The notes under the pieces are model-generated. The model did not search any database, had not been told where the DNA came from, and was given only the letters and a program-made list of their open reading frames with translations. Positions 39,163 to 56,877 of a DNA stretch of 56,877 bases are shown here, piece by piece. The position numbers and the translations under genes were made by a program. The DNA comes from Prevotellaceae bacterium (GTDB lineage Bacteria; Bacteroidota; Bacteroidia; Bacteroidales; UBA932). The number at the start of each line of letters is the position of its first letter. Positions within the stretch are counted from its first letter, which is position 1. The stretch spans positions 1 through 56,877 of the forward strand of contig JAITQN010000037.1 of NCBI GenBank assembly GCA_031288865.1. Direction: 5' to 3'.

Positions 39163-40380
39163 CTACCAAAATTCATACATTACCATCAGAAATTCCATGC
39201 TTTTATTCTTTTTATCTTTTAAAATGTTCCTTAGCTCCTCATTTTCAAAACTCGCCATATTGTTTTTTGATAGCGTTATCATTTCTTCTACTTCGTGAGG
39301 TAAATAAATTCCTACATAATGATTATTATAAATAGTCATCGGGCGCGGTATAATATTAGGAATATTTATTTTATTATCAATCGGTATCTCTTTGGGAGTA
39401 AAAGATTTATTTCTAGCTTTATCGAACCAATAAGTTGTTGAAGCAATCATATTGTTTTTTTCATGTGCTATTTGATAGGAAACAAATCCTTTTGTTTCTA
39501 ATATTGGTGGCTTCAAATGGGTGTAATTAGAATGTTGTATTAAATTGAAAACTTGCTGCATAGTTAGATACTCCTTTCTTTTCTCCCAAAGGCTTTTTTT
39601 CTGATTGACAACATACTTGGCAGAGTACGTGGAATCATTAATGATTTGGTAGATCGTATCAGATAAAACGGGAGTAAATAACAACTGTTCTTTATAATTA
39701 TATTGTAGCGCATTACTAATGATCGCTTCTTTTTGTATTGGATAATAAGGAAATCCTTTGCATATAACGGAGTCAATGGAAGATATTATTAAATTATAAT
39801 TATGTTCTATATCCAGACTATACGATTGAGCAAATGTGGTTTGATTTACAAACTTATCGCCAAGCATTTCTAAATAAAAACAGGGAGCTGCCTTGGTTTT
39901 TTTGACAAATTGACCATTCAGCGAATAATAAAGCATACTTAATGAAAGTCGATCCGGTATAACAATTAGTGTATCTTTCCTTGATATAGTTATATCCATC
40001 AATCCATGATATTCTTCTGGCCCTCCTCCTTTGCTGTGAATGATGTGAATCAGTTTTCCCGAAATATCAAATATATATATACTTTCGGATTTAAATGCAT
40101 CCAAAACGATCACATGATTATCATAAATGACTAATTTATCAAATATTCCAATAGGTTCTTTAGAAAAAAACGGGATATAACGAATATCTTTAATTTTTGT
40201 GTTAATATCTTCCAATGGCAGCGATTCAAAATCGTGCGCGTCAATAATCTCAACCGGTAAATCTTGTCTTAATCGAAAAGATTCAGATGCTAAAATTTGG
40301 GAAGTAACCGGATTCTTTTCCTTTGTTTTACATGAAATTAATAGGAGAGTCACTGCTATGTAGATGGATATTTTTTTCAT
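39163..40380 (-). CDS. Six-bladed-beta-propeller-type lipoprotein (BF3164/DUF5128-like), paralog 0
   Basis: Lipobox LLLISCKTKE. Shares family blocks with six paralogs downstream (DKLVIYDNHVIVLD, IFDISGKLI, SKGGGPEEY). Confidence 0.75.
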   Translation of the reverse strand: MKKISIYIAVTLLLISCKTKEKNPVTSQILASESFRLRQDLPVEIIDAHDFESLPLEDINTKIKDIRYIPFFSKEPIGIFDKLVIYDNHVIVLDAFKSESIYIFDISGKLIHIIHSKGGGPEEYHGLMDITISRKDTLIVIPDRLSLSMLYYSLNGQFVKKTKAAPCFYLEMLGDKFVNQTTFAQSYSLDIEHNYNLIISSIDSVICKGFPYYPIQKEAIISNALQYNYKEQLLFTPVLSDTIYQIINDSTYSAKYVVNQKKSLWEKRKEYLTMQQVFNLIQHSNYTHLKPPILETKGFVSYQIAHEKNNMIASTTYWFDKARNKSFTPKEIPIDNKINIPNIIPRPMTIYNNHYVGIYLPHEVEEMITLSKNNMASFENEELRNILKDKKNKSMEFLMVMYEFW

Positions 40381-40541
40381 GCTCTTTTTTTGTTTTTAAT
40401 GATTTATCAATTAGAGTGCCTAAAGAAAGCGCCCAAAATTAATATATAATTTACTGGCAATCAATCTATTATTTTTTTTATAAGATCCTATGTCAAATGC
40501 AGAAAATATAGCGATTTTGAGCACTCTCATAATTTTGTTAT

Positions 40542-40742
40542 TTAAATTGACTCTGAATCTGGAATACATCCGGTTCCATTTACACCAACACCTCCTCCTG
40601 TACTGTCCGAATATGAACATGAATGGTATGTCGGTGTCCACGAGCCTCCCATTGTGTTATACCAATGAGATTCAGTATCCCAATCTTGATTATTAAATTC
40701 ATAAGCTAATGCCTCCACATTGGCTAACGAAAGCCCTGGCAA
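40542..40742 (-). pseudogene. NVEALA-motif peptide gene lacking its N-terminal signal-anchor (5'-truncated)
   Basis: It reads (stop)KLNENQ-LPGLSLANVEALAYEF..., with only a TTG available as start. The frame upstream closes at 40761-40763, inside the 3' end of the neighbouring DUF1793 gene. The intact paralogs have ~30 more N-terminal residues. Confidence 0.6.
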
Positions 40743-40753
40743 TTGATTCTCAT

Positions 40754-43225
40754 TTAGTTTTTAACTTTTAGTTTCAATTTGTCTTCCAACATTCTTATGT
40801 AAACCGCTCCGACAACCGGTCGTGCAAAAAACATCCGGTGGGTTGGTGTATCCGTGTTGTAAAAATCGGGCATCGGGTCACGGTGCATTGTTTCGTTCAT
40901 AAACCGGTAGATTGGAAGGATAAATTTTCTGAACGAAGCACTATCATTTGTCAAAGCTGCGGTAAACAGCGACCAGTCTGTTTTTGCATATTGTTCCCGC
41001 CCATCCAGCGGAAGCCCGTATTCATTTAGTTTCATCGCATAGTAGGCCTCTTCTGTTTCGGTAATATAGGGCGAAAATATATTCATATTCAATATTTTAT
41101 CCCAGATAAGATTGTATTTCTGGCTCCAGGTACTGTCAACCTGGTCGAATGCCATTTTGTAATGATCGCGTGCGTTTGCCGCCCGTTCCCACTCTTTTGC
41201 CATTTCCTTTGCCCGCCTAATATACGATTCTCCCAGTTCTTTCTGCTTCAGCATACTCGCCAAACGTCCGTAGGAGGCGATTCCCAAAATGGCTTTGATG
41301 GATAAATTGGTGTTTTGGGAATAGCTTGGCGCAAAATTATCACTCGTTATTTGATTTTCCGGATATACCCCGATTTCAAGCAAATAGCGTGTCCAGCGAG
41401 AAAGCGTTTCCCAATGCTTAGCCGCATAGCCGGCGTTTCCTTCTACGGTAGCGATAGCTGCAGCCATGATCAACATATTGCCGACTTCTTCTATCGGCAA
41501 ATCGGCGAAGAAACTCTGTCCGTTCGCCAAGGGATAATATCCTACATCGTGCGCCGGATATGGCTTCTGCCACTGTCCACTTTCGCTGTAGTAAAATACC
41601 GGATTCATCAGGGCTTTCATCAATTCGGTATTGTAATACAGGTACAGGGGCGAGGCAGGAAAAAATATATCCACTACACCCATCTCTATGCCAAACAACA
41701 TGCGCTCTCCTTCGGACGATGCCACTAATTTATACGAGGTTGCAGTTTGCCGGTAGGCTAAAGCACACAGTCCGGCATATTCTTTTCCGCCAAGTTCTGT
41801 GGCTTTCACCATGATTTCGTGATTCAGGCGGGCACACTTTTCTACTAACGAGACGTATTCCCTGTTTGCATCCCGGAATACCTGTTCGATATGCCGGTTC
41901 TCTTTCCGGTTCCAGTATGGGCGGAGATTTTCGCCAAAATACTGGATTGCAAATATATCATCGTATCCAGCCAGGATTTTTCCCGATGCTTTTTTCGATT
42001 TTCCCAGCGCTTGACTGATGGCTATCACGGAATTTTCCTCCGATTTGGCACATTCCTGCAGATGTCCCGTTTCCAGAAATGACTTTCGCATAACAACCGG
42101 ATAGCCGACGTCGCATGTGGCGTTTTCTTCTTCGGCGCTCAGGTAAAAATAACCCCATCCTTCAGCATCCCTGTCCAGCATTTTCTGTACAATACTCCCG
42201 GTTTTGGCAAAGAGCATTTTGTCTTTCCGGTAACATTCCGCTTGACTGGGACGGTTGCTTTTTGTACATGCCCATTCCGGGTGAGCTTCCAGATAGATTT
42301 CGACCTGATGTTCTTCTCCGTCTAAGGAGTTGGTTTTATAAGCAATATAATTAACTGGACGTCCCATTAAATCCACATTGTCTATTAGGAAAGGCGCTAT
42401 GAAACTAAGTTCCAGTTCTACATTTCCACATTCAAAAACATATTGTGTTTGGGTAGGTTGAAGATCTACCGATTTTTGAACGGCAGTTCTTTCTAGGCAA
42501 GAGCCCGCATGTTCCGCATAAATCCCAAAATCGACCAAACCACCGCCATAGAAGTTATGACAATGAGCAGCGATCGTTATTTTTCCGTCCAATGCCTTTT
42601 CAATGATTTCTTTAGGAATCTCCACTTCCACATTCTTGTACCATTCATAACCGGTTTTTACCAACACGATGCCGTTGACATACAACTCAAAAGTATCATC
42701 ATGAGAATACCTCAATATGAACCGCTTTCCTTTGGTGGAGGTGTCATTTAATCGAATTTCCCGGCGCACCCATATATCGGATGAAAGCCACAGGGTATGT
42801 ACATTTTGTTCTTCTCTTGTTCCGAAAGCGGCTTCGCCTTCCATCCAATGGCTGTCATCGAAGTCGGTTCTCTGCCAGCCTTCGGTGGGTTGCTCGAATG
42901 TGTATTTGCCATACCATTCATTTTCGTAAGAGATGGGAGCTAAGACTTCATGAGCTACTACATCCAGGCCCATAAAGCGATAGACTTCGCCATCGACGCG
43001 AATAGCGCCCACCATCGGCATTTCTCTTCCAAAAGAACTTTTAACCGTTTGCCGGTATAATGTATCTGTTCTTATCCAGGAACTGATCTTCGGGTCTATC
43101 GTTACAAGGGGATATGCCGGAGAGCGAAGTTCATTGCGAATGAACGGAATCTGCGATGTGTCTTTCTCACACGAAGTGACGATAAAACACACCAAAGGGA
43201 GCAATAAAAGAGTTATCTTTCTCAT
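40754..43225 (-). CDS. Glutaminase-A-like putative glycoside hydrolase (DUF4964/DUF5127/DUF4965/DUF1793 architecture), intermediate-GC copy
   Basis: ATG 43225 (MRKITLLLLPLVCFIVTSCEKD). LRSPAYPLVTIDPKISSW, VGAIRVDGEVYRFMG and YDDIFAIQYFGENLRPYW are collinear with 30746-33247. Confidence 0.8.
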   Translation of the reverse strand: MRKITLLLLPLVCFIVTSCEKDTSQIPFIRNELRSPAYPLVTIDPKISSWIRTDTLYRQTVKSSFGREMPMVGAIRVDGEVYRFMGLDVVAHEVLAPISYENEWYGKYTFEQPTEGWQRTDFDDSHWMEGEAAFGTREEQNVHTLWLSSDIWVRREIRLNDTSTKGKRFILRYSHDDTFELYVNGIVLVKTGYEWYKNVEVEIPKEIIEKALDGKITIAAHCHNFYGGGLVDFGIYAEHAGSCLERTAVQKSVDLQPTQTQYVFECGNVELELSFIAPFLIDNVDLMGRPVNYIAYKTNSLDGEEHQVEIYLEAHPEWACTKSNRPSQAECYRKDKMLFAKTGSIVQKMLDRDAEGWGYFYLSAEEENATCDVGYPVVMRKSFLETGHLQECAKSEENSVIAISQALGKSKKASGKILAGYDDIFAIQYFGENLRPYWNRKENRHIEQVFRDANREYVSLVEKCARLNHEIMVKATELGGKEYAGLCALAYRQTATSYKLVASSEGERMLFGIEMGVVDIFFPASPLYLYYNTELMKALMNPVFYYSESGQWQKPYPAHDVGYYPLANGQSFFADLPIEEVGNMLIMAAAIATVEGNAGYAAKHWETLSRWTRYLLEIGVYPENQITSDNFAPSYSQNTNLSIKAILGIASYGRLASMLKQKELGESYIRRAKEMAKEWERAANARDHYKMAFDQVDSTWSQKYNLIWDKILNMNIFSPYITETEEAYYAMKLNEYGLPLDGREQYAKTDWSLFTAALTNDSASFRKFILPIYRFMNETMHRDPMPDFYNTDTPTHRMFFARPVVGAVYIRMLEDKLKLKVKN

Positions 43226-43418
43226 AACAGTATCGTTTTTATTTCCATATTTGTTCACCTTTCTTGTAAAGAAAAATTCGTTCCTGTACGTTCCGGCTAT
43301 GATTTTTCAGATACAGCAATGTGTCGGCTGGAACATTTTGATAAAACAGCTTCTTTTCCATTGGCGTCGATGGTTAATCGGCTTTACATCCCTCCTTTTT
43401 TTGTGTTCGTGCAGGGCT

Positions 43419-43688
43419 TTATAATAACTTGGCATAACCATCTAATGCTTTGCCTTCATAACAATAGCAGTAAGGCATATTTTCAATCAGAAAACAGGCG
43501 GCTTTGTATTTCAAATTGTCTTCGGGGTATTGTTTGTAGCAGAGCAGTACTTTTTTCAGTTCCGGACGACTCTCTCCCGCTAGGGCAAGGACTTGCTCCA
43601 GAATGGAAACTTCCTCTTTCGGCAGGCAAACAGACAAAAGAAAAATGGCAAAAAGAGTAAATACCGATAATGTCTTTTTTATTTTCAC
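43419..43688 (-). pseudogene. N-terminal fragment (89 aa) of a transglutaminase-like lipoprotein paralog
   Basis: LEQVLALAGESRPELKKVLLCYKQYPEDNLKYKAACFLIENMP parallels residues ~25-70 of 44039-45760 (LKQAGNNRTELEKVLKHYGKTPADSLKLRAAEFLITNMP). It then stops, and no catalytic core follows. Confidence 0.55.
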
Positions 43689-43810: not shown

Positions 43811-44038
43811 CTTTCATTACCTTTGCCACCAAACCAAACAATATGAATTCTTTTCATATTATATTTATAAAATCTGTTTTCTATTTTCACACGCCCACTA
43901 TCTGGCTACTGGGCAAAAATAATTTCGATAGGTAAAGCCCTTGCTGCGCTCTTGCCGGCAGAGGCTTTGACCAAATAAATTTACCGCCTTGTTTATTCAA
44001 AAAGTTGTGCATAGTACTATAAATTCCGCAACGTTAAT
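43811..44038 (+). promoter_or_regulatory. Conserved non-coding leader, type 2, copy 1 (upstream of the transglutaminase-like gene)
   Basis: About 230 nt alignable by eye over most positions with 55868-56149 (e.g. ctatctggc..tgggcaaaaataatttcga.aggt.aaagc.cttgc.gc.ctcttgccggcag.agct.tgacc.aataaatttaccgcc). Confidence 0.6.
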
Positions 44039-45760
44039 ATGAAAAATATCCAAAATACTATCATTATGCTTGCTGCATGTGCCGTTTCCTGCACCAGTTT
44101 TTCTCCAGAAATAGAGACGGTACTGAAACAGGCGGGTAACAACCGTACCGAGCTTGAGAAGGTGCTGAAGCATTATGGCAAAACCCCTGCCGACAGCCTG
44201 AAACTGCGGGCAGCGGAATTTCTTATCACAAATATGCCGGGCAAACGCTCGGAATATTATGAGGCGCCGTGGAACGATGTGGCAACGGCGCTCCTTCGCT
44301 GGACAAGCTCGTCGGACAAGCAGATGGTGGCGAATACTTACCGTTTGGGTAAACCGGTAATCAAAGAAGACGTAAAGTATATCACCGCCGACTATCTGAT
44401 TAATAACATTGAATTGGCATTCAAAGTATGGCGGGAACAACCCTGGGGCAAATATATTCCTTTCGATGTTTTCTGTGAGGAGATACTGCCCTACCGGTTA
44501 GACATAGAGCCGCTGGAAAACTGGCGGGAAAAAGCGCTGGCAAGTTTCGCCGACCTGAACAGGTCGTTTAAGGACGATTCGACCATCACGGCGGTGGAGG
44601 CTTGCAGCAAGGTGAACGATTTGTTGCCGCGTTTCAGGTTAGACAAAGATTTTCCGGCGATGAACTATTCGCAGTTGATGGCGTCGACAAGAGGACCTTG
44701 CGATGCGATGGCCGCACTGGCTGTTTTCAGCATGAGGGCGCTGGGCATTCCCGTGACATTCGATTTTACGCAACTGTGGCCCAACCTGGGGCATGGACAT
44801 ACGTGGAACACTGTGCGCGACAGTACGGGAAGGCATCTGTCCTTTATGGGGGCTGAATCCAATCCGGGAGTTCCTCACTTGGGGTCAATCGCGCTCAAGA
44901 ACAAGGTGTACCGTAGAACCTTCGCCAAACGTCCCCTCTCGGTAAACGACAAATCCTTTTCGTTGGTTTTCCAAGACAATATCGTAGATGTTTCCGGAGA
45001 ACATGAAGGGTTTTACAAACTCAATATTCCGGTAAAATATCCGCCGGCCGGCCAGGCCGGTTATGCCTACCTGGCGGGCAAACACTTTTCACAGTGGATT
45101 ATCGTCGGATGGGGTGTTATCGACGGCGACACCATCCGGTATGCCCCTGTCGGGAGTCAAGTTCAGTACCTTCCCGTATGGTATGTGGCCGGCGGGCTTC
45201 AACCCGCCGGTGACGTGTTTGCGTTAGACAAGGACGGAAAAATTTTCTCCGTAAGCAACGAACATAAACCCTTTAAAGGACCGCACATCCTTTCAAAAGC
45301 CGCTCCCTGCATTATTCCGATGCGCGATTTCGACATGGGCGGGGAAGGCGTGGCTTTTCATGATATTGACAACTACAATTCTCAGATAGAAGGCGATGAG
45401 TACCGTAGAAGCCACGGCGATATGAACAGTTTTCCGGTGGATGTGGAAAAGGGGACAAATATTGCCTGGTCGGCGCCTGGAGAATGGCTGCTATATACGG
45501 TAGAAGTACGGGATGCCGGAGAATATCAGTTGTCCATCAGCGTATCTACACTGCTGGAGCCCACATTTCACCTGGAGGTGGATAGTCGGAATGTGTCAGG
45601 CCCTATATCCGTATCCCCTACCGGAGGATGGGCCAATTGGACGTGGTATCCCGACAAGCCCCTGCGCATACACCTGACTGCAGGAACTCATCAGATCAAG
45701 TATTACTTGGAATCCGGTGAGAACAATCTTCATGAAATGAAGCTGGAATATAGTAAATAG
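44039..45760 (+). CDS. Transglutaminase-like cysteine-protease-fold protein with C-terminal CBM6/35-like domain
   Basis: Core CDAMAALAVFSMRALGIPV ... GHGHTWNTVRD (Cys...His...Asp). C-terminal GEWLLYTVEVRDAGEYQLSISV ... TGGWANWTW ... LTAGTHQIKY is typical of CBM6-type modules. Confidence 0.75.
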   Translation: MKNIQNTIIMLAACAVSCTSFSPEIETVLKQAGNNRTELEKVLKHYGKTPADSLKLRAAEFLITNMPGKRSEYYEAPWNDVATALLRWTSSSDKQMVANTYRLGKPVIKEDVKYITADYLINNIELAFKVWREQPWGKYIPFDVFCEEILPYRLDIEPLENWREKALASFADLNRSFKDDSTITAVEACSKVNDLLPRFRLDKDFPAMNYSQLMASTRGPCDAMAALAVFSMRALGIPVTFDFTQLWPNLGHGHTWNTVRDSTGRHLSFMGAESNPGVPHLGSIALKNKVYRRTFAKRPLSVNDKSFSLVFQDNIVDVSGEHEGFYKLNIPVKYPPAGQAGYAYLAGKHFSQWIIVGWGVIDGDTIRYAPVGSQVQYLPVWYVAGGLQPAGDVFALDKDGKIFSVSNEHKPFKGPHILSKAAPCIIPMRDFDMGGEGVAFHDIDNYNSQIEGDEYRRSHGDMNSFPVDVEKGTNIAWSAPGEWLLYTVEVRDAGEYQLSISVSTLLEPTFHLEVDSRNVSGPISVSPTGGWANWTWYPDKPLRIHLTAGTHQIKYYLESGENNLHEMKLEYSK

Positions 45761-45807
45761 TGGTTAAGAATTATGAATGCTCAATATCTCTACACTAAAA
45801 ATATTCG

Positions 45808-46236
45808 TATCTTTGCTCGGCGTTATTTCCAAATAATGTCGAATTTAAAGTGCGATTCCTGTTTTGCAAAAATGCAAATAGATTTTGATATTTTATTGTG
45901 ATATGCGATAAGAAGATTGATGTTGTTTATATTGAATGCCATAGGAATTAACACAAGGTTGCTATGCATATCTGCATATCCGAGACAAGCAGAACTGCGA
46001 GACTTAAACCTCTGTGGTAGACAAAATCAAACTGCGATTTCGTAATACAGGAAAGCATGTACTATTTGGGAATTTGGGAAAAACAAATTCACCTGAGATA
46101 GCCTTTGCCATAGCTTTCCTTGTTGGCAAGGGTGATAACAGTTCGAAAGAGAGCCCTTAAAGGAAACGTAAAGGTTTGATGCGAAAAAGAGCCATTGATA
46201 AAAAACTGATTTTAGAAACAATAAAAACTAAAAACT
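45808..46236 (+). promoter_or_regulatory. Long conserved leader, type 1, copy A (putative -7 box TATCTTTG plus ~420-nt 5' UTR)
   Basis: Near-identical by eye to 48035-48474 apart from scattered substitutions and small indels. Conservation begins at about the TAnnTTTG-like box (45808-45815) and runs to the NVEALA start codon. Confidence 0.6.
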
Positions 46237-46584
46237 ATGAGAAAAAATGTTTTGGGCTTAATAGCCTTATTCGTAGTTGCAATTGTGGCTGCATGGAATG
46301 TGAGTTTAAACTCGCAAAATAATAAATTATCGGGGCTTTCCTTGGCCAATATAGAAGCCTTGGCGGAAGGGAATGAAGAGGAAAATAATAAGCCTACATG
46401 GCAAGTAGGAGAAAAAACAATTCAAACAACTACTTCTCCGGGATGGGAATGGGATGTTTCAGTGAACGGATGGTTCTTTAACGGGAAAAGGACTTCTAGT
46501 AAACCTCCAGAAATCACAACAGTGAAAATTAAATGTTGTAGAGCACAAGGAGACGTGACATCTTGTTCATACGAATCTTGCTAA
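46237..46584 (+). CDS. NVEALA-motif small secreted/anchored peptide 1 (115 aa; 4 Cys in the variable C-terminus)
   Basis: MRKNVLGLIALFVVAIVAAW (n+h region), NVSLNSQNNKLSGLSLANIEALAEG, then a unique tail ending ...KCCRAQGDVTSCSYESC. Confidence 0.8.
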   Translation: MRKNVLGLIALFVVAIVAAWNVSLNSQNNKLSGLSLANIEALAEGNEEENNKPTWQVGEKTIQTTTSPGWEWDVSVNGWFFNGKRTSSKPPEITTVKIKCCRAQGDVTSCSYESC

Positions 46585-47859: not shown

Positions 47860-48034
47860 GAACCTTTGATTGAAAATGCACCGTAATCCGGCTCTGATCT
47901 GTACAGGCTGATAAAATGCCTTATTGTCAGATGATTATTGATAAAAAAAGCATCTCCGCATAATTTTACTATACAGTAGTGATAAATTTTCTCAAAGAAT
48001 TTCTATTTGTTTGAGTATGAATTAAAAATATTTG

Positions 48035-48938: not shown

Positions 48939-50111
48939 ATGAAAAATTTACTTTGTATTACAGCATGTTTTAGTTTATTGATTGTAATTATTTCATGCAA
49001 CAGGACACGGGAAAAACATATCCGGAACAATTACGAAACGGATAAAATCGTTGTTGATATTAATAGGGAAGACAAGTCATCCTTTGACGATTTTTTTGAA
49101 TATTCGCATCATATTGTATTACAAACAACTGACAATTCCTTGATTTCAAGAATAGATAAAATGCAAATCAGGAATGACAGACTGTACATATTAGACAGAA
49201 CGGGGGTCATACTTGTGTTTGATACAAACGGAAATTTTATAAAAAGGATTAATCATAAGGGACAATCCGGTATGGAATATATAAGCGCCCACGATTTTGA
49301 GATAGATACGGAAGATAATCTATATATCTGCGATTTTCTTGGAAGTAAAATTCTGAAATACGATAAAAATGACGAATTTATTACGGCAATTAAACTTCCT
49401 GTAAAAAGTCCTTCATTTAAATTAATGGGAAAAGATTGTTATGCATTTGACCTCCGTAATGGAGCGAATACTTCGGGGGAAAAAACTTTTTTTAATTATT
49501 TATATTATAAGAATGGATATATCACTTGTAAAGCATTGCCTTTCAATCCAAACCTGCAAGGTCATAGCTTTTCTTACGGTTATGGATTGTCTTCATTCTA
49601 TTTGTATAACAAAAAAACATTTTTGACAAGTACGATGAACGACACCGTTTATACTATTAATGAAAATGGATTCCCAATACCGTTTGCAATCTATGAATTT
49701 GGCCTTAAAAAACCGGAATTATCTTTTTCAAAAGAGGAAATTGAACAATATCTAAGGGAACAACAACGAGGAAATAAGATATCCGGCATCTATTGTTTTT
49801 ATTTGTTTAATGATTTTCTTTTCATTTGTTTTGATTACCGGGGGCAAACTAATTATGTAATATCAAAAATAAATGAATCTCCGTTATTTATCGGAAAATT
49901 TGGTTATGATAAAAATGGATTATGTATTATTCCAATTGCATACTTGTCTGATTTTCGGCAACCTCAGTTAGCAACAATTATTGATCCGGATTATTTGTCA
50001 AGTTTACTAAAAAAACGAAAAGCCACAGATAATTCTGATTTACTGTTGAGCATGCAAAAATCAGTTGTAGAAGAGGATAATCCTATTTTGGTTTTTTATA
50101 ACTGGAAATAA
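48939..50111 (+). CDS. Six-bladed-beta-propeller-type lipoprotein, paralog 2
   Basis: Lipobox LIVIISCNRT. Blocks LQTTDNSLISRIDKMQIRNDRLYILD, FDTNGNFI and HKGQSGMEY. Confidence 0.8.
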   Translation: MKNLLCITACFSLLIVIISCNRTREKHIRNNYETDKIVVDINREDKSSFDDFFEYSHHIVLQTTDNSLISRIDKMQIRNDRLYILDRTGVILVFDTNGNFIKRINHKGQSGMEYISAHDFEIDTEDNLYICDFLGSKILKYDKNDEFITAIKLPVKSPSFKLMGKDCYAFDLRNGANTSGEKTFFNYLYYKNGYITCKALPFNPNLQGHSFSYGYGLSSFYLYNKKTFLTSTMNDTVYTINENGFPIPFAIYEFGLKKPELSFSKEEIEQYLREQQRGNKISGIYCFYLFNDFLFICFDYRGQTNYVISKINESPLFIGKFGYDKNGLCIIPIAYLSDFRQPQLATIIDPDYLSSLLKKRKATDNSDLLLSMQKSVVEEDNPILVFYNWK

Positions 50112-50240: not shown

Positions 50241-51212
50241 ATGAAAATATTAGTATTAATCTGTTTATCAATAGCAGTATTTATCTCATCGTGTCAAAAA
50301 GGCGAAAATGTATCCGGTAACACAATTCCTATAGAGTTGCCGGCAGAGGCGATAAATAGTAAAGAAATAGCAGAGAGTGAAGATGAATATTTCGATTCAA
50401 TGAAATATATTCAATTAGAATCAAAAGAAGACATTACTTTAGGTAAAATTGATAAGATTTTAATTACGGAAAACCGGATATATATATTGGATATTTTCAA
50501 ATATGGCGGTGTGATTATTTATGACAGGGAAGGACAAATTGTAAATGCAATAGACAGAAGAGGGCAAGGACCGGAAGAATACAATTATATTTTCGGGATT
50601 TTCTATGACCAGCAGGATAGTACAATCAATCTTTTGTGCCGGTATCCGAATAAAATAATGAAATTCGATCAAGACGGCTATCTTCTTATCAAACAAATTG
50701 AACTTCCTGTTGCTTTAATTGATATTAAAAAATCAACTGATGGGTATTACATAGGCTATGCAGGTTCTTCTTCTATCAATAATTCATACTCTATTTATAT
50801 CTTTTCGGAAAAGTTTAAGCTTGTTGCTTCCGAATACCCCAACCACAAGGAATGGCAAATATACAGAATGGACAATACCTTGTCGTCCTATTCGGACAAT
50901 ATTTATTTTACTCCAATGTATGGATATACCGTCTATACAATAAAGGAGAAGAGTATCGCGCCGCTTTACGTGTATGATTTCGGTAAAAATAATAAAGTTT
51001 TGATGGTTGGCAATCCGGTATTGAATCCGAAAATCTGGAAATTATATAAACAGACTGTTTCCGGACAAACGCAAACAGCAATAAATACAGAAACAATATT
51101 TTTAACAAATGTTGTTGTTGAACAGCCGGAAGAAATAGGCGCTTTTCACAAAACGATTCGAGTGCATTGTAATGTGGAAAACAGGGATCACCGGAGTTTG
51201 TCTTTGCCATAG
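50241..51212 (+). CDS. Six-bladed-beta-propeller-type lipoprotein, paralog 3 (short; 3' end apparently replaced)
   Basis: Lipobox VFISSCQKGE. Blocks LESKEDITLGKIDKILITENRIYILD and RRGQGPEEY. Only 323 aa; the last codons run into the copy-C leader repeat (from ~51175). Confidence 0.65.
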   Translation: MKILVLICLSIAVFISSCQKGENVSGNTIPIELPAEAINSKEIAESEDEYFDSMKYIQLESKEDITLGKIDKILITENRIYILDIFKYGGVIIYDREGQIVNAIDRRGQGPEEYNYIFGIFYDQQDSTINLLCRYPNKIMKFDQDGYLLIKQIELPVALIDIKKSTDGYYIGYAGSSSINNSYSIYIFSEKFKLVASEYPNHKEWQIYRMDNTLSSYSDNIYFTPMYGYTVYTIKEKSIAPLYVYDFGKNNKVLMVGNPVLNPKIWKLYKQTVSGQTQTAINTETIFLTNVVVEQPEEIGAFHKTIRVHCNVENRDHRSLSLP

Positions 51213-51328
51213 CTTTCCTTGTTGACAAGGGTGATAACAGTTCGAAAGAGAGCCCTTAAAGGAAACGTAAAGGGTTGATGCGAAAAAGAGCCATTGATAA
51301 AAAACTGATTTTAGAAACAATAAAAACT
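51175..51328 (+). promoter_or_regulatory. Leader type 1, copy C (3' ~150 nt only)
   Basis: ...ctttgccatagctttccttgttgacaagggtgataacagttcgaaagagagcccttaaaggaaacgtaaag...aaaactgattttagaaacaataaaaact is collinear with the 3' parts of copies A and B. The upstream ~280 nt are missing. Confidence 0.6.
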
Positions 51329-51643
51329 ATGAGAAAAAATGTTTTGGGCTTAATAGCCTTATTCGTAGTTGCAATTGTGGCTGCATGGAATGTGAGTTTA
51401 AACTCGCAAAATAATCAATTGTTCGGGATTTCGTTAGCCAATGTGGAAGCCTTGGCGGAAGGGAATGAAGAGGATAATACCAAGAAATGCAGCAGAATTG
51501 TTCGTTCATGTACTTGTTCACATCCGGACAAAGGTTTTGTTGGTATGGCCATCCTTGAATGTGAAGAATATATATGGCGTGCTCCAATGGTACAGCAGAC
51601 ATGCAGAACTAGCAGTTGTCCTTACGGTGCAAATTGCTCATGA
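51329..51643 (+). CDS. NVEALA-motif peptide 3 (104 aa; 7 Cys)
   Basis: Start at ATG 51329 (MRKNVLGLIALFVV...). The first 87 nt are identical to peptide 1. LFGISLANVEALAEGNEED, then a unique Cys-rich tail ...CSRIVRSCTCSHPD...CRTSSCPYGANCS. Confidence 0.8.
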   Translation: MRKNVLGLIALFVVAIVAAWNVSLNSQNNQLFGISLANVEALAEGNEEDNTKKCSRIVRSCTCSHPDKGFVGMAILECEEYIWRAPMVQQTCRTSSCPYGANCS

Positions 51644-51713: not shown

Positions 51714-52808
51714 ATGAAAAATTTGAGTATAATCATATTAGGAACACTTGCCGCATCTTGTATTCAATGCGATAGCAGGAATATACATACTGATACTGTA
51801 CATATACCCTCAGCCGTCGATAAAATGATGGTAACGGATGATTTGTTCGATAATTTCGAGTTTATTCCATTAGAAACTTCCGAAGAAAGTTTATTTGGAT
51901 ATATAGACAAAATCATCATTCATAACGATAAATTCTATATACTTGACAAAACAAAAACAAGAAGAATTAATGTTTTTAATTCCAATGGTAAATTTAGTCA
52001 TACTATAGGGAAACGTGGTGATGGGCCGGAAGAATATACAAAAATAGAAGATTTTACAATCGACGAGAAAAACGGTCAGGTTATTATTCTTTCTTTTCCT
52101 TCAATTCTTTACAGATATGATTTGGAGGGGAATTTTATGGAAAGGAAAAAAATATCTGATTATTTGTTATGGCATATTTGTTATGATGGCGCTGAAGGTT
52201 TTTTATGTTCTACCGATTATCAATCGTCTGAAAGTGATTATTTGATCCATCATTATGATAAGGATTTTACTTTAAAAGATCGAAAAATAAAATCAACAAA
52301 CGGAATTGTAGCTATGCCGCCTCTTAATATTAATCCTTTTATAAAAGATGGGGATAAAATATCTTATTTTGATTTTTACACGTCAACATTACATTGGAAT
52401 ATTTTAAATGCGGAAGAAAAACAAATAGTGTTTGAGTTTGGAAATAAAAAAGTCCCATTTGAAGCCTATAAAGATCCCATGCGATTTTATGAGAAACAAC
52501 AGGATTATAATTTTTTTATAACAGCAGTTATCGACAAAGGATTGTTTTGGTCATCATACAGCAATCACGGTCAAGGCGCAAATATTTTAATAACAGACAT
52601 TACTAATGGCAAAAAAATATTATTGAAAGATTCCCGGTTCTTGGAGATATTATGTTGTCATGACAGTTATTTTTATCAAGCATACTCCCCATTAACGTTT
52701 TTGGAAGGAAATTTTAATTTTTCTGCCAAAGTAATATCAGATTACAGTGTTGAGTTTGACAGTAATCTTATGATCTTGAGATTTAAGGCCAGGCGAGTTT
52801 TTAATTAG
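51714..52808 (+). CDS. Six-bladed-beta-propeller-type lipoprotein, paralog 4
   Basis: ATG 51714, lipobox LAASCIQCDS. Blocks IPLETSEESLFGYIDKIIIHNDKFYILD, FNSNGKF and KRGDGPEEY. Confidence 0.8.
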   Translation: MKNLSIIILGTLAASCIQCDSRNIHTDTVHIPSAVDKMMVTDDLFDNFEFIPLETSEESLFGYIDKIIIHNDKFYILDKTKTRRINVFNSNGKFSHTIGKRGDGPEEYTKIEDFTIDEKNGQVIILSFPSILYRYDLEGNFMERKKISDYLLWHICYDGAEGFLCSTDYQSSESDYLIHHYDKDFTLKDRKIKSTNGIVAMPPLNINPFIKDGDKISYFDFYTSTLHWNILNAEEKQIVFEFGNKKVPFEAYKDPMRFYEKQQDYNFFITAVIDKGLFWSSYSNHGQGANILITDITNGKKILLKDSRFLEILCCHDSYFYQAYSPLTFLEGNFNFSAKVISDYSVEFDSNLMILRFKARRVFN

Positions 52809-52820: not shown

Positions 52821-53084
52821 ATGAGAAAACATTTCACTCTCCTTGTAATTATCGTAGCGATACTTACTGTATTGTTAGCATATTCGACTTTAGGTTTAGT
52901 AAAAATGAAGAAGAATTATATACAAACAGAAAATATAATTATAAAACAAGCAGATATGATTTATATTCTGACCGATTTTATAAAAGTTTCATGTAAACTT
53001 AATAAAACAAAACTTATTAACTGTCAGCTGTTTGATGAAAACAACTTGAGTATGTCAAAAACTCTTTTTTCATGTTCTCAATAG
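52821..53084 (+). CDS. Small single-TM protein (87 aa), possibly an N-terminal relic of a thioredoxin-fold paralog
   Basis: N-terminal TM (FTLLVIIVAILTVLLAY), then KMKKN..., with the same layout as 54303-54911 (TM, then RMKSKQ...). It ends ...KTLFSCSQ, where the longer protein has ...LVLCFSENSCDEC. The similarity is weak. Confidence 0.4.
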   Translation: MRKHFTLLVIIVAILTVLLAYSTLGLVKMKKNYIQTENIIIKQADMIYILTDFIKVSCKLNKTKLINCQLFDENNLSMSKTLFSCSQ

Positions 53085-53139
53085 AGTCAAGCACATTTCA
53101 GCACAAAAACTGATTTTAGAAACGATAAATACTAAAACG

Positions 53140-54306
53140 ATGAAAAAGATTGAATTATTTTATTTCATAGCAGGCTTGATTGCACTTGCTTCTTGTTCAA
53201 GAGAAAAAGTGAACACGTTGGTAGAAATCCACATAGACCCTTCCCAGGTGGAATCGGCTTATGATATAGCCGGTGATATTGAATCCGAATGGGATATTAT
53301 CGCATTAGAAACAACCGACAATTATTTGATAAGCGCTATCAACAAGCTATATTATCAAAATGGAATTTATTACTTATTAGACAAGAACGGGCATACCGTT
53401 TTTTTATACGATTCGTCGGGGAAAGCTATTTCAAAGCTTTACAAAAAAGGCGAAGGTCCGGATGAATATTCTATGATTGAAGCGCTTGCCATCGTAGATA
53501 AAAACATCTGGGTTTCTGATTCTAACCTGCGATCTTTAATCTGTTACGACGAAAACCTGAAAATGACAGATCGCTACAAAACGTTTGATATAATGAGCGT
53601 TTACGATATGGTAACTATTGACGGAAATATTTGTGTTGCAGCCAACTGGTCAGGATGGAATGACCAAAATATTGAATGTGGAATCTACAACACGGCTAAC
53701 CGGGAAATAACCGGATTTTTACATGTACCCAAACAAAAAGAGGAAATCGCCACTTTCAAAAAAACAAATCAGTTAGCCGGGAGTGAAAATTCATGCCTCT
53801 TTATCCATTCGTATTGCGACACGATTTTCCAGCTAAGTAATAATGAATTTTCTCCTGCTTATAAGGCAGTCTTCAAAGAAAGGTACGAAGACATTCCGCT
53901 ACCAATAGAGAAAATAATGGAACCTTCCCTTGCTCACATAATCAGAGGGATGGAAAATATTAAACAAACCTCCCAAAATATCTTTATTAGTTATCTTGAT
54001 ACAAGGAAATTCATGACCGCTATGTATAATAAAAGCAAAGGAGTCTGCCGGGTTTACCACTATTTGATAAATTCCAACATCGGCGCCTTGCCAATATTCC
54101 TGTATAATGCATTTTTTGACGAAAATAACATAATATCCGTACACGAAGCGAGTGAGGTTTTGGATTTTTTTGGTAATGAGTCTAATCTGGCAAAAATAAA
54201 AAATGAATCGGATAGAAAAAAAATAGAAACCATCATGTCTTCCATTGACCCTTATTCCAATCCGGTACTAATCCGGTATAAGTTAAAACCAAATTCGTCT
54301 TTATGA
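53140..54306 (+). CDS. Six-bladed-beta-propeller-type lipoprotein, paralog 5
   Basis: Lipobox LIALASCSRE. Blocks IALETTDNYLISAINKLYYQNGIYYLLD, YDSSGKAI and KKGEGPDEY. Preceded by the last ~30 nt of leader type 1 (aaaactgattttagaaacgataaatact). Confidence 0.8.
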   Translation: MKKIELFYFIAGLIALASCSREKVNTLVEIHIDPSQVESAYDIAGDIESEWDIIALETTDNYLISAINKLYYQNGIYYLLDKNGHTVFLYDSSGKAISKLYKKGEGPDEYSMIEALAIVDKNIWVSDSNLRSLICYDENLKMTDRYKTFDIMSVYDMVTIDGNICVAANWSGWNDQNIECGIYNTANREITGFLHVPKQKEEIATFKKTNQLAGSENSCLFIHSYCDTIFQLSNNEFSPAYKAVFKERYEDIPLPIEKIMEPSLAHIIRGMENIKQTSQNIFISYLDTRKFMTAMYNKSKGVCRVYHYLINSNIGALPIFLYNAFFDENNIISVHEASEVLDFFGNESNLAKIKNESDRKKIETIMSSIDPYSNPVLIRYKLKPNSSL

Positions 54307-54911
54307 AGTATTATTTATATTTATTACTTGCTCTATTATTGATTACATTAATAATTTTTGTGAATCTGTTATATTATAAAGAAAGAATGAAATCAAAACA
54401 GTATTTAGTTTTGTACGAGCAACTTGCAAACGAAAAAGTAGATTTGTCAGTAAAGAATACTTACAGAAGCATTGAAGTTTATTTGAATGGGAAAAACTTT
54501 CAGAGAGAAGTTGAAATATCGGATGGTAGAGGTAATCGTTTAGAATTAAGCCAGCTAATTGATAAGGACAAACTCGTTTTGTGTTTTTCCGAAAATAGTT
54601 GTGATGAATGTGTGGAGGCGGAATTAGATAAATTAAATAAAAAAAATCAATTGGCCGGTTCAGAAAATGTCATTATACTGATAAACGCCTCCGATAAGAG
54701 GTATGTGCATCAATATCAAACGAATCATCAAAAATATCCTGTTTACGAAATGAAAACGAACCAAGCACAATTATCTTCAATCATTGCACCATTCTTTTTC
54801 ATTTTAGAGAAAGAGACCATGCGGGTTAATGCAGCGTTTGTTCCTCTGAAACATCAACCGGAAGAGACTGATAAGTATCTAAATAAAGTAATTAATGATT
54901 ATTTTGAATAA
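54303..54911 (+). CDS. Membrane-anchored thioredoxin-fold protein with a CxxC motif (TlpA/redoxin-like)
   Basis: ATGA overlap with the preceding gene. N-terminal TM (YLYLLLALLLITLIIFVNLL). GNRLELSQLIDKDKLVLCFSENSCDECVEAELDKL fits the redoxin pattern (partner strand, then C-x-x-C at a helix start). Confidence 0.6.
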   Translation: MKYYLYLLLALLLITLIIFVNLLYYKERMKSKQYLVLYEQLANEKVDLSVKNTYRSIEVYLNGKNFQREVEISDGRGNRLELSQLIDKDKLVLCFSENSCDECVEAELDKLNKKNQLAGSENVIILINASDKRYVHQYQTNHQKYPVYEMKTNQAQLSSIIAPFFFILEKETMRVNAAFVPLKHQPEETDKYLNKVINDYFE

Positions 54912-54928: not shown

Positions 54929-55825
54929 ATGGATTCAATTAAAAACCTTCGCCCAAAATGGACATGGAAATCGCTCCTGAAAACCGTTTTTTTCTGGTTT
55001 AAGATAGTGATATTAGGGCTATTATTAGCTCTGGTATTGCGGCTCTTTGTCTTTTCCTCATTTAAGGTGCCGACTTCCTCCATGGAGCCGGCTATCCTGG
55101 CGGGCGATTATATTTTGGTCAATAAACTGGCATACGGGGCAAGGCTTCCGAAGAATTTCAACTTCATGAAAGGAGGGGAATTTGAAACCTTCCGGGTCAA
55201 AGGCTTTTCAAAAATTAAACGTAACGATGTTGTTGTTTTTAATTTTCCCTATCCCGACTGGTATGGCATCGGATGGGATTTGAGCCTCTATTACGTGAAA
55301 CGTTGCGTGGCTCTTCCCGGCGATACGTTTTACATCGACAAAGGTATTTATAAAGTAAAAAACTGTTCGGATGTTTTGGGAAATTATGAAGCACAGCGCC
55401 GTTTCTCGAAAGTGAGAACAGAGGAAATTCCTCCGGAGATATTTCATTGTTTTCCGAACAATGAGGATTATCACTGGACGGTTAAGCTATTCGGCCCGTT
55501 GTATGTCCCCCGCAAAGGCGACACGCTCGCCATTGACCCAAAAAACATCGCGCTTTACCGGAATTTAATCCGTTATGAAACAAATAAGGAAATATATTTG
55601 AAAAATGATACGGTTTATTTGGACAATGAATTTTTGCAATCGTATATTTTTCAACAAAATTATTATTTCATGGCCGGCGATTGGGTGTCGGACTCCAAAG
55701 ATTCGCGCTACTGGGGCTTGCTGCCCGAAGACCATATTGTAGGCAAAGCGGCTATCATTTGGAAATCGAAAAAAATCGAAACCGACCGATACCGATGGAA
55801 ACGGTTTTTCAAAAAAATCAAATAA
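54929..55825 (+). CDS. lepB: Signal peptidase I (S26 family) paralog
   Basis: TM anchor, then SSMEPAILAGDYILVNKLAYG (Ser nucleophile box), YVKRCVALPGDTF (Lys general-base box) and GDWVSDSKDSRYWGLLPEDHIVGKA (box E). Confidence 0.85.
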   Translation: MDSIKNLRPKWTWKSLLKTVFFWFKIVILGLLLALVLRLFVFSSFKVPTSSMEPAILAGDYILVNKLAYGARLPKNFNFMKGGEFETFRVKGFSKIKRNDVVVFNFPYPDWYGIGWDLSLYYVKRCVALPGDTFYIDKGIYKVKNCSDVLGNYEAQRRFSKVRTEEIPPEIFHCFPNNEDYHWTVKLFGPLYVPRKGDTLAIDPKNIALYRNLIRYETNKEIYLKNDTVYLDNEFLQSYIFQQNYYFMAGDWVSDSKDSRYWGLLPEDHIVGKAAIIWKSKKIETDRYRWKRFFKKIK

Positions 55826-55867: not shown

Positions 55868-56149
55868 CTTTTACTATCTTTACCGCAAAACCAAACAGTA
55901 TGATTCTTAGTCATATCATATTTATGAAACTTATTTTCTGTTTTCGCGCTTTTCGCACGCCCTCTATCTGGCAGTTGGGCAAAAATAATTTCGACAGGTC
56001 AAAGCTCTTGCCGCACTCTTGCCGGCAGGAGCTATGACCGAATAAATTTACCGCCTTTCGAGACTTGATTTTATTCAAAGAGTTGTGCAAGGAATATAAT
56101 GGCACGTAAAACCCCATATTTAATTTATAACAAATAATATTAATAAATT
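55868..56149 (+). promoter_or_regulatory. Conserved non-coding leader, type 2, copy 2 (upstream of NVEALA peptide 4)
   Basis: Collinear with 43811-44038. Unrelated to leader type 1. Confidence 0.6.
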
Positions 56150-56434
56150 ATGAAAAAAATAATATTAGGCGGTGTGGCTGCTGTTGTAATCGCTGTTTTG
56201 GCGGCTGTAAACGTGAATATGAATTCACAAAGTGAAAATTTGTTGTCTGACCTTGTGCTGGCGAATGTGGAAGCGCTGGCACAGGAAGCAAATCCCCCCG
56301 CCACTAAATATGTTGCGCTTCATATGACTTGTTATAAATTTGTTTATGGTGGTGATGTGGTTGATACAGGAAAAACGTACGTATCTTGTTCATCCGGTGG
56401 ATTCGCCGATTGTCAGCCAACAAGCTGTAACTAA
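56150..56434 (+). CDS. NVEALA-motif peptide 4 (94 aa; 4 Cys), divergent leader subtype
   Basis: MKKIILGGVAAVVIAVLAAV NVNMNSQSENLLSDLVLANVEALAQEA, then a tail ...MTCYKFVYGG...YVSCSSGGFADCQPTSCN. Confidence 0.8.
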   Translation: MKKIILGGVAAVVIAVLAAVNVNMNSQSENLLSDLVLANVEALAQEANPPATKYVALHMTCYKFVYGGDVVDTGKTYVSCSSGGFADCQPTSCN

Positions 56435-56457
56435 AGTTAAGAGTTCCTTTTACTCAG

Positions 56458-56487
56458 AAAGGGAACTTGTAGTACTAAGTTCCCTTT
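56458..56487 (+). terminator. Hairpin (11-bp perfect stem) after peptide 4, with an upstream competing segment
   Basis: AAAGGGAACTT (56458-56468), loop gtagtact, AAGTTCCCTTT (56477-56487), then cggTTATTTT. The segment AGTTCCTTTT at 56442-56451 could pair alternatively with 56458-56468. Confidence 0.45.
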
Positions 56488-56518
56488 CGGTTATTTTAAT
56501 TAAAACACAAGTATTGAT

Positions 56519-56877
56519 ATGAAATATGTATTTATTTTTTTCTTATTTATAACATTGTCATGTTGTAGTAATAATAGTACGAAATCGTATGAGAATGTAC
56601 TGGAAATAGATTGCAAAAATCTTGAAGAAATTAAATTGTCTGATTATGTAAAAAATATAAAAGTGGTAAAACTTGCGACTTCCGATGATGTATTGATAGG
56701 AGAGATTGTAAAAGTAGAGATATTCAATAACAGGATATATGTTCTTGACAGGCAATCAAACGCCCTGTTTGTTTTTACGGACGAGGGGGAGATTTTTTAT
56801 AAATTAAGAAAAATAGGACAGGGACCCGGAGAGTATATTCATCTTTTCGATTTTGAAGTAACAAATGATGGCGTGTA
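56519..56877 (+). CDS. Six-bladed-beta-propeller-type lipoprotein, paralog 6 (3'-truncated by the window edge)
   Basis: Not in the ORF track because no stop is reached. ATG 56519 gives MKYVFIFFLFITLSCCSNN..., with blocks LATSDDVLIGEIVKVEIFNNRIYVLD, FTDEGEIF and KIGQGPGEY. Confidence 0.75.
   Translation, partial: MKYVFIFFLFITLSCCSNNSTKSYENVLEIDCKNLEEIKLSDYVKNIKVVKLATSDDVLIGEIVKVEIFNNRIYVLDRQSNALFVFTDEGEIFYKLRKIGQGPGEYIHLFDFEVTNDGV

Follow-up and report, generated by a model that had tools for sequence, protein, structure and literature searches.

The 56.9-kb contig JAITQN010000037.1 of a Prevotellaceae bacterium, analyzed here at its full length of 56,877 nt and called the window, encodes proteins without close relatives in the cluster database. 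Between positions 39163 and 56877 it carries an array of cassettes in which a short gene for a Cys-containing peptide with an NVEALA motif lies upstream of a gene for a six-bladed β-propeller lipoprotein. A first-pass annotation, made from the sequence alone, had described this array, and our list of open reading frames (ORFs) reproduces every ORF it named, coordinates included. The cassette array is genuine, far beyond chance. The structural part of that account, with a leader and a core in each peptide, a pairing of peptide with lipoprotein and a set of accessory genes, holds. Features are on the plus strand unless marked otherwise.

Four intact NVEALA peptides are encoded in the array: 46237-46584 (115 aa, four Cys in the core, 39.1 bits against Pfam PF14055), 48475-48732 (85 aa, two Cys, 32.5 bits), 51329-51643 (104 aa, seven Cys, 39.1 bits) and 56150-56434 (94 aa, four Cys, 38.9 bits). 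All four exceed the PF14055 gathering cutoff of 27 bits in a scan with Pfam hidden Markov models (HMMs), as expected from their earlier assignment to the NVEALA family, and a fifth, truncated copy at 40542-40742 (minus strand) scores below it. This remnant has no signal region; it retains ..LSLANVEALA.. and a tail with two Cys, and is recognized by an HMM of the peptide leader at E = 1.7e-4. Its tail resembles those of peptides from L073 and L165 (loci in other genomes are cited by L number). The stop codon of a gene for a GtaA-like protein abuts the point at which the signal region was lost. By position, the five peptides have 2, 4, 2, 7 and 4 Cys in the tail, and the intact four end in ..ESC, ..LDC, ..NCS and ..SCN, in both respects as read before. 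Another ORF of 87 aa at 52821-53084 has a hydrophobic N-terminal anchor and three Cys. It lacks the NVEALA motif, has no Pfam match and gives no significant match to the leader HMM, and its status is uncertain.

Three of the intact peptides precede full-length cognate propeller lipoproteins, at 46666-47859 (E = 2.4e-38 against DUF5128, PF17170), 48939-50111 (E = 6e-32) and 51714-52808 (E = 1.2e-37). The fourth precedes a propeller gene at 56519-56877 that is cut by the contig end after 119 N-terminal aa; it was aligned to its paralogues and not included in the Pfam scan. The propeller at 39163-40380 (minus strand; E = 1.4e-24, lipobox LLISC) is effectively an orphan because its peptide is the truncated one, and that at 53140-54306 (E = 7.9e-26) is an orphan that heads the accessory module. 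Six full-length lipoproteins match DUF5128 with E values from 1e-24 to 3e-41, in line with the propeller assignment made before, and some also match DUF4934. Seven paralogous lipoproteins had been counted, and the alignment does place a lipobox Cys and the common blocks LET, IDK, YILD, FD..G and G.GP.EY in all seven, with pairwise identities of only 19-24%. One of them, however, at 50241-51212, is a decayed chimera. It covers only positions 14-230 of the 321 in the PF17170 profile; about 245 aa from the N-terminal part of a propeller are joined to the C-terminal part of a gene for a thioredoxin-like protein with a DUF1573 domain. The last 80 or so residues match the HMM of the latter family at E = 1.4e-13 (BLASTP E = 4e-7 over residues 242-288), and the ORF ends where the upstream repeat of the next cassette begins. 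This gene evidently arose as a deletion chimera.

To place the array among other genomes, we scanned 185,579 genomes, one per species, with a degenerate DNA pattern for LANVEALA, which selects loci by the peptide only. The scan returned 120 loci of 8 kb. About 55 code for real NVEALA peptides, mostly in records named Bacteroidales or Bacteroidia, and the 65 others are in-frame chance matches from other phyla that served as controls. For 53 of the 55 NVEALA genes the next same-strand ORF lies within 0-300 bp, encodes 240-430 aa and has a lipobox. At least 50 of the 55 are followed by a propeller of 330-430 aa recognized by an iterated HMM, while only one of the 65 control loci has any propeller match. 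Pfam assigns the 53 downstream ORFs, with overlaps, to families of the six-bladed propeller clan, namely TolB_like (PF15869; 31), DUF5128 (26), DUF4934 (18) and DUF4221 (4). The rare peptides without a propeller adjoin propeller fragments or are decayed themselves (L095, for example). An upstream peptide is missing for 27 of 81 propellers. Co-occurrence of the two families across genomes, which the first-pass annotation had left to be established, is thus far above chance.

Peptide and propeller also travel together. Across 53 cross-species pairs, the median bit score between propellers was 236 where the tails are related and 24 elsewhere (Mann-Whitney p = 1.6e-9), and the 99th percentile for pairs with unrelated tails is 100. 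As related tails have related propellers, the two are inherited as one unit, and each peptide has one cognate partner, as had been proposed. Orthologues of the propeller at 46666-47859 share 37-75% identity with it. An orthologous core, TWQVGEKTI..GW..KIKCCR..G...SCSYE.C, is encoded upstream of orthologous propellers in L166 (50%) and in the Parabacteroides locus L168 (42%). L162, from a cluster named Bacteroides sp. GD17, encodes an intact orthologue of the same propeller and no peptide.

As a genetic unit, the peptide-propeller pair is both conserved and widespread. It is carried by Bacteroides, Phocaeicola, Parabacteroides, Alistipes, Proteiniphilum and Paludibacter, and by metagenome-assembled genomes (MAGs) labelled Prevotellaceae, Dysgonamonadaceae and Porphyromonadaceae. 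Arrays hold up to five or six diverged pairs. The 92-kb Phocaeicola plasmid pPvulCL10_1 of P. vulgatus (NZ_CP096966.1, L175) encodes at 8486-12114 an NVEALA peptide, a six-bladed propeller and a second propeller, next to the conjugation-related genes for a TraM-recognition domain protein and an ArdC-like protein. The names given to these proteins by NCBI, here as elsewhere, do not go beyond 'NVEALA domain-containing protein' and '6-bladed beta-propeller'. Only five matches came from a word-indexed homology search with one entire peptide, the query being too short. A motif scan of viral contigs gave 41 matches, about the number expected by chance, and phage records only three short partial matches.

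The peptides share a constant leader. In 65 of them, anchored on the motif, the consensus is MKK, a hydrophobic stretch of about 19 residues, G-Y-N-V-Y-x-N/S-Q and then (L/M)-S-(D/E)-L-x-L-A-N-V-E-A-L-A-x-x-E. The leader is about 46 aa long and the core about 30-70 aa. A Ser at position -5 is found in 63 of 64 peptides and a Glu at the third residue after ALA in 55 of 65. Conservation stops at this point, three residues past ALA. The distinction between a constant leader and a variable core drawn before therefore stands: conservation reaches LANVEALAxxE and the core beyond it is unalignable. NQLESLA, SVEALA, NIESLA and IIENLA replace the motif in other peptides. We considered whether the Ser in the leader might be O-glycosylated in the manner known from Bacteroides and rejected this, as the order is S-D instead of D-S/T.

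Tails were analyzed in two sets, 67 distinct tails from NVEALA loci and 129 tails from matches to the leader profile. The 67 tails have a median length of 40 aa, contain 8.5% Cys and fall into 49 sequence families. The number of Cys is even in 50 of 64 tails of the first set and in 111 of 129 of the second, where every tail has Cys and 65 tails have four, more than any other number. Most tails carry a net negative charge (50 of 67 and 91 of 129). A Cys within the last three residues had been noted for the intact peptides of the window; as a general rule it does not carry over, being a tendency only (30 of 67 and 70 of 129 tails). A leader profile built from the peptides of the window alone matched at least 1,705 clusters at 50% identity among 1.84 billion representatives, and the 150 matches listed are all 51-142 aa long. 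These features mark the peptides as small disulfide-bonded proteins whose sequences show extreme turnover.

Some cores recur between distant loci. A core family with the pattern D/RCPNGC..G.GC.C..W/Y.P.Y.E is found in tails of L056, L112, L135, L141 and L161, and so spans MAGs labelled Dysgonamonadaceae (L056) and Prevotellaceae (L112). In the Parabacteroides locus L168 two peptides, at 9563-9919 and 13111-13425, have orthologous cores behind degenerate leaders (..DIVISVYAQRTGD.. and ..NLVIQILATTGD..) in which the NVEALA motif is absent. Because such peptides carry orthologous cores without the motif, Pfam undercounts the family.

The DNA upstream of the peptide genes is conserved as well. The region is present in three repeat copies detected with blastn and nhmmer: 45796-46236 (with repeats D1-D4), 48023-48474 and, as a partial copy, 51153-51328. 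Each contains a cis element of about 100 nt, at 46053-46151, 48290-48388 and 51153-51250, respectively, made up of TTGGCA-type repeats followed by a 9-bp hairpin in which three of the nine pairs have compensatory changes. The element is also upstream of the last cassette (55954-56050) and of a transglutaminase-like gene at 44039-45760 (element at 43887-43983, repeats and hairpin), so that it is common to NVEALA genes and the transglutaminase-like gene. Further copies are at L073 6211-6311, L048 6419-6519 and L173 11217-11308. Copies were found only within the lineage of the window and not in loci from Bacteroides. The element probably combines a common promoter or operator with a 5' stem-loop. 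Two other identities were rejected: a sigma-54 promoter in the TGGCA..GCA motif, where the GG-to-GC spacing is 9 nt and not 12, and an intrinsic terminator, as no T-run follows the hairpin. Antisense ORFs of 51-72 aa at 46027-46221, 48264-48419 and 51102-51320 (minus strand) are probably not genes either; they lie inside the repeats and are conserved at the DNA level only.

In three cassettes the upstream DNA is 86-96% identical and the first 87 nt of the leaders are identical, whereas cores and propellers are unrelated. The similarity ends at the leader/core junction. Such a break is what an exchange of cassettes through recombination within their constant part would produce. An exact 14-mer, CTGATTTTAGAAAC, is located 17-31 nt ahead of the start codon in three NVEALA genes and before the propeller gene at 53140, and nowhere else in the window. 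The latter copy belongs to an NVEALA-type translation-start region (53110-53139) directly before that propeller gene, indicating that its cassette lost the peptide ORF by deletion.

Behind the orphan propeller at 53140 lie two genes for enzymes that may act on the peptides. The first, 54303-54911, encodes a membrane-anchored thioredoxin-fold CxxC protein that resembles ResA/TlpA. Its AhpC/Redoxin matches in Pfam are weak (19.6 bits, under the cutoff of 26); the N-terminal hydrophobic anchor is visible in the sequence. It belongs to the shorter branch of a thioredoxin-like family with an invariant CxxC and cis-Pro, and the profile of this branch matches ResA over the whole domain (E = 1.9e-5). 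The second, 54929-55825, encodes an S26 signal peptidase I (PF10502, E = 2.2e-34; TIGR02227, 114.7 bits with a cutoff of 47) with intact Ser/Lys catalytic boxes, SSMEP, YVKRCVALPGD and GDWVSDSKDSRYWG. A scan of metagenomes with this protein gave two short contigs only.

Six homologues of the S26 protein (51-65% identity) were examined on long contigs. In all six loci the order is a small ORF, a DUF5128 propeller, a thioredoxin-like protein of about 200 aa and S26, and in one of them two S26 copies are 4 kb apart. Downstream of S26, five of the six encode a protein with a Wzy_C domain and tetratricopeptide repeats (TPRs), a membrane fusion protein (MFP) and a resistance-nodulation-division (RND) transporter, with an outer membrane factor (OMF) called in four; the sixth contig stops at S26. 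This constant gene order indicates that this S26 branch is dedicated to the system. The window has the same order (53140, 54303, 54929), then another cassette and then the contig end. The Wzy_C proteins resemble O-antigen ligases (WaaL) and are 608-672 aa long at L172 10933-12759, L173 9135-11153, L174 11897-13723 and L176 10890-12734. They are encoded directly or shortly after the dedicated S26 and before the MFP-RND-OMF pump, with faint TPRs in some copies. One locus has a MacB-type pump beside a pair.

We also clustered the remaining ORFs in the 55 NVEALA loci. The commonest neighbor, in 28 loci, is a lipoprotein of about 290 aa with a CxxC thioredoxin-like domain and DUF1573. Next come a protein of about 350 aa with two transmembrane (TM) segments (16 loci), a transglutaminase-like lipoprotein (nine), the S26 peptidase (eight), a Wzy_C protein of about 610 aa with TPRs (seven) and RND pump parts (four to five). 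The shared accessory genes had been given as S26 and a redoxin-like protein. Both do recur, but the set is larger, with the transglutaminase-like gene in the window and the Wzy_C/TPR and RND pump genes elsewhere. In the two-TM family (L162 7197-8360 aligned with 13 other loci) proteins of about 350-390 aa cross the membrane at the N-terminus and again after a periplasmic domain, and have an OmpR/PhoB winged helix at the C-terminus. The winged helix is visible with the family profile only (E = 2.7e-12 against the PDB), and pairwise BLASTP against a response regulator gave nothing. ToxR and CadC have the reverse topology, and neither Pfam nor NCBIfam has a model for the family. There is no copy of this putative regulator in the window. 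The transglutaminase-like lipoprotein of the window, 44039-45760, carries a CBM_6 domain and a weak Transglut_core match in Pfam. Besides the nine NVEALA loci, its family is present in L172, L174 and L166. Fragments of a decayed copy lie at 43239-43688 (minus strand; E = 4.9e-23 and 4.7e-10 with the family HMM).

According to a gene table for B. thetaiotaomicron (PMC10434189), BT0662 belongs to the O-antigen ligase family, BT0664 is a 6-bladed beta-propeller, BT0667 signal peptidase I and BT0669 an RND adaptor. The same kinds of genes are thus close together in this tractable species, judged by the annotations in the table alone.

What the propeller does was approached through its fold. An AlphaFold2 model of the propeller at 46666-47859, made with 36 homologues, has six blades (predicted local distance difference test, pLDDT, 91.4; predicted TM-score, pTM, 0.85). 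Its best Foldseek match in the PDB is 4raa (E = 3.6e-21), with 3s9j at E = 9.9e-10, followed by the NHL domains of Brat and TRIM proteins. Both 4raa (BF0058) and 3s9j (BVU_1028, DUF4221) are Bacteroides structural-genomics entries of the Joint Center for Structural Genomics and have no assigned function. No enzyme is among the best 50 PDB fold matches. Family-wide invariant residues are restricted to blade 1 and the loop into blade 2, and the family alignment has no multi-blade set of conserved residues of the kind needed for an active site. The sole motif conserved throughout the family, GxGPxEY, sits where the sequence matches eukaryotic NHL-repeat domains, and we take it to be a structural hallmark of the NHL repeat. 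In the Bacteroidetes an acidic run after the lipobox Cys marks a lipoprotein for export. Residues +2 to +6 after this Cys include no acidic residue in 45 of 72 propellers, and there is no acidic run. This lack of an export signal suggests that the propellers stay on the periplasmic side.

The rest of the window is of a different make-up. A polysaccharide utilization locus (PUL) at 5814-37723 has 54-59% GC, and the ends of the contig have 31-41%. The PUL encodes SusC (19502-22720), SusD (22726-24852), three GH28 and one GH3 glycoside hydrolases, very large SusE-like proteins, a GtaA-like protein (30665-33247) and an FN3-repeat lipoprotein (35654-37723). This high-GC block resembles a foreign island or the product of chimeric assembly. 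A pair of AbiEii toxin and AbiEi-like (DUF6088) genes with a tyrosine integrase, at 1626-4847, lies on the boundary between low and high GC and would fit an integrative element carrying the PUL. Between the PUL and the peptide array is a fragment of an IS4-type transposase (38180-38746, the DUF4372 N-terminal part only). The GtaA-like protein, a glutaminase A six-hairpin protein, has two paralogues in the window, the one in the high-GC block and another of 41% GC at 40754-43258 (minus strand), whose stop is the one that abuts and truncates the NVEALA gene. Positions 31-1413 encode the last part of a protein with a CHU_C-type signal for type IX secretion, and then PorP/SprF; the organism therefore has a type IX secretion system. 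Rfam and tRNA scans of the window gave nothing.

From these observations we propose that the hydrophobic stretch takes the precursor through Sec, which would place the core in the periplasm. There the ResA-like CxxC protein may form or shuffle the disulfides of the core. The dedicated S26 peptidase could then cut at the only invariant Ala-X-Ala, NVEALA|, and so free the core, which in complete loci would be moved across the outer membrane by the Wzy_C/TPR protein and the MFP-RND-OMF pump. The propeller would be a non-enzymatic NHL-type periplasmic scaffold that binds its cognate core. It is most likely an immunity protein, shielding the producer, and cells that have kept an orphan, from a peptide toxin that acts in the periplasm or on the envelope. 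New specificities would arise by recombination at the conserved promoter-plus-leader DNA. The general part of this proposal, an exported, disulfide-bonded and leader-processed peptide with a specific propeller partner, is likely. The full model, with Sec export, cleavage at A-L-A, release by the pump and neutralization by the cognate propeller in the producer, we advance tentatively. Slightly more tentative still is the idea that these genes form a Bacteroidales-wide pathway, not described so far, by which hypervariable, disulfide-rich mini-proteins are matured and exported, with the NHL propellers as a new class of immunity (or receptor) proteins.

Of the roles considered for the propeller, immunity to a toxin is the best supported by the sequences and peptide modification the least. 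Immunity is favored over a chaperone or an enzyme because propellers survive without peptides and not the reverse, because both cores and propellers diversify strongly, and because the constant part carries the recombination junction. The plasmid-borne pairs count as further support for an effector with its immunity protein. Several observations speak against this interpretation. Most cores are anionic, unlike typical membrane-active bacteriocins, and 380 aa is large for an immunity protein. The A-L-A is about 20 residues past the hydrophobic stretch, beyond the reach of a classical signal peptidase, and a more usual cleavage site is often found directly after that stretch; if cut there, the peptide might keep the NVEALA helix as a pro-region. 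Nor does the model explain why a Glu is conserved at the third position past ALA. S26 is present in only eight of the 55 8-kb loci, a number that underestimates the association because arrays exceed 8 kb. Finally, the Wzy_C/RND part is not in the window, where the contig ends first, and the regulator is absent as well.

The same processing and export genes and the same cognate pairing would also serve peptides secreted for signalling or for action on a host or phage, with the propeller as a chaperone, carrier or receptor dedicated to its own peptide in the periplasm. A signal might be relayed by the membrane-bound regulator that many loci encode. The two-TM winged-helix protein in 16 of 55 loci, the cis element with its TTGGCA-type repeats before the peptide genes and the anionic charge of the cores, unusual for killing peptides, are all consistent with this. 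However, the regulator is missing from the window. A third of the propellers, including the intact orphan orthologue in L162, are kept without a peptide, which is odd for a chaperone without a client. Five or six diverged pairs per array and 49 core families among 67 tails are a better fit to an arms race. We regard this alternative as possible, though on the unlikely side.

It is improbable that the peptide stays in the periplasm as the small subunit of a stable propeller complex, or as a membrane-tethered partner. The analogy here is with the quinoprotein amine dehydrogenases, which have a small Cys-rich subunit (MauA), a propeller subunit (MauB) and a thioredoxin-like protein (MauD). A Cys-rich small protein, a β-propeller and a thioredoxin-like CxxC protein likewise recur as a trio in our loci, and the propellers appear to face the periplasm. 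Hypervariable cores in which only Cys is conserved, however, cannot build a conserved active site, and the constant peptidase and efflux pump point to release and export. The conserved small subunit, seven blades and maturation genes that define a quinoprotein amine dehydrogenase complex are not what is encoded here: the blades are six and of NHL type, and the six S26 loci have no MauG-type heme protein or radical SAM maturation genes.

The first-pass annotation had likened the layout both to bacteriocins or ribosomally synthesized and post-translationally modified peptides (RiPPs) and to effectors with immunity proteins. The second likeness is the best supported, while the RiPP variant is not supported, no modifying enzyme family having been found in the window, the recurrent neighbor families of the 55 loci or the genes called in the six S26 loci. 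In a RiPP pathway the propeller itself would act chemically on the core, in the way of peptidyl-hydroxyglycine lyases of the NHL type and other enzymes with a propeller fold. The leader/core architecture would agree with this, as would blades 1-2, which resemble ScyF and NHL repeats weakly and below the threshold. Against it, the propeller family has no conserved catalytic constellation, no enzyme or signature of one emerged from the fold search, whose best matches are not lyases, and one highly diverged propeller per peptide, with orphans besides, would be unusual for tailoring enzymes. In none of the loci examined was another RiPP enzyme family found. The earlier suggestion that the propellers might be modifiers is not borne out, and we hold such a pathway to be highly improbable.

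That the adjacency is incidental, with the propellers as independent nutrient-binding or structural lipoproteins and the NVEALA ORFs as unrelated small membrane proteins, might be read from the propellers without peptides and the carbohydrate-related neighbors (the GtaA-like gene, the transglutaminase with CBM6 and the PUL), but it is strongly disfavored by the co-occurrence statistics, and near-obligate adjacency across genera, co-inheritance of core and propeller and the operon-like order shared with S26, thioredoxin-like and pump genes leave it scarcely credible.

The gene set has not been described before, and databases list the families in it simply as domains of unknown function. In the literature searched, no paper mentioned NVEALA, and mentions of DUF5128, BF3164, DUF4221 and the Pfam numbers were unrelated or in gene lists. 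NCBIfam has no model for the peptides, propellers, thioredoxin-like and transglutaminase-like proteins, regulator or Wzy_C protein, and PADLOC models gave no match for nine component proteins. This agrees with the earlier statement that no function had been described for the pairing. PDB sequence searches with two cores returned nothing meaningful. Gut Bacteroidales shape the human microbiota in part through secreted toxins, of which to our knowledge only a handful are known. If our interpretation is correct, gut Bacteroides including B. thetaiotaomicron would have interbacterial effectors of a new, contact-independent family. Should the peptides prove antagonistic, they would be a large untapped pool of narrow-spectrum, disulfide-stabilized peptides, each with a neutralizing protein. 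If they are signals, they would make up the first peptide communication system of the phylum. The conserved order of peptide, propeller, thioredoxin-like protein, S26, Wzy_C/TPR protein and RND pump makes the question directly testable.

The structures closest to the propellers, 4raa and 3s9j, share their fold and family clan but add no mechanism, as their function is unassigned. Dedicated S26 peptidases are known in SipW, for TasA and TapA, and in TraF, for the TrbC pilin. As in those cases, an extra signal peptidase I paralogue is encoded here with its presumed substrates; unlike in those cases, the presumed site NVEALA| is about 20 residues past the hydrophobic stretch. Heat-stable enterotoxin II of E. 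coli passes through Sec, forms its disulfides in the periplasm and leaves by the tripartite pump MacAB-TolC. The NVEALA peptides are likewise small and Cys-rich with a Sec signal, would undergo a periplasmic oxidoreductase step, and have a tripartite pump encoded beside the peptidase wherever a homologue locus reaches past S26 (five loci). They differ in that the pump is of the RND type, that peptidase and oxidoreductase paralogues are dedicated to them and that each peptide has a cognate lipoprotein.

Class II bacteriocins have an LSxxELxxIxGG-type leader, which a C39-peptidase ABC transporter from the same locus cleaves. Like them and the bacteroidetocins, the peptides described here are small, disulfide-containing, secreted Bacteroidales peptides with a thiol oxidoreductase in the locus and immunity, we presume, encoded alongside. 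Unlike class II bacteriocins, they have no conserved GG in the leader, which combines a hydrophobic Sec-type region with the NVEALA helix, and their cores are mostly anionic. Neither the window nor the genes called in other loci examined include a C39-peptidase ABC transporter, and we do not class the peptides with the double-glycine-leader bacteriocins. Nor do we class the array as a RiPP biosynthetic locus: radical SAM, YcaO, LanM/LanB and similar modifying enzymes were found neither by Pfam in the window or the 53 downstream ORFs nor in the recurrent neighbor families of the 55 loci or the genes called in the six S26 loci.

The closest parallels are with polymorphic toxin/immunity cassettes, such as those of contact-dependent inhibition (CDI), Rhs and the effector-immunity pairs and acquired immunity islands of the Bacteroidales type VI secretion system (T6SS). 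In both, a constant N-terminal trafficking part is joined to a hypervariable C-terminal part, a cognate partner is encoded directly downstream, orphan partners are in excess and recombination has its boundary between constant and variable parts. Tandem arrays of diverged cassettes and pairs on mobile DNA are common to both as well. Constant part, variable part, partner, orphans and junction, the elements of a polymorphic toxin-immunity architecture, are thus all found here. The differences lie in the parts themselves. The variable part is a disulfide-rich mini-protein of 30-70 aa and not an enzyme domain, delivery would run from Sec through a peptidase to an RND pump and not through a type V secretion system or T6SS, and the partner is an NHL propeller lipoprotein of 330-430 aa. 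The array would accordingly take its place among secreted peptide effectors with cognate protective proteins, here made from a previously undescribed set of genes.

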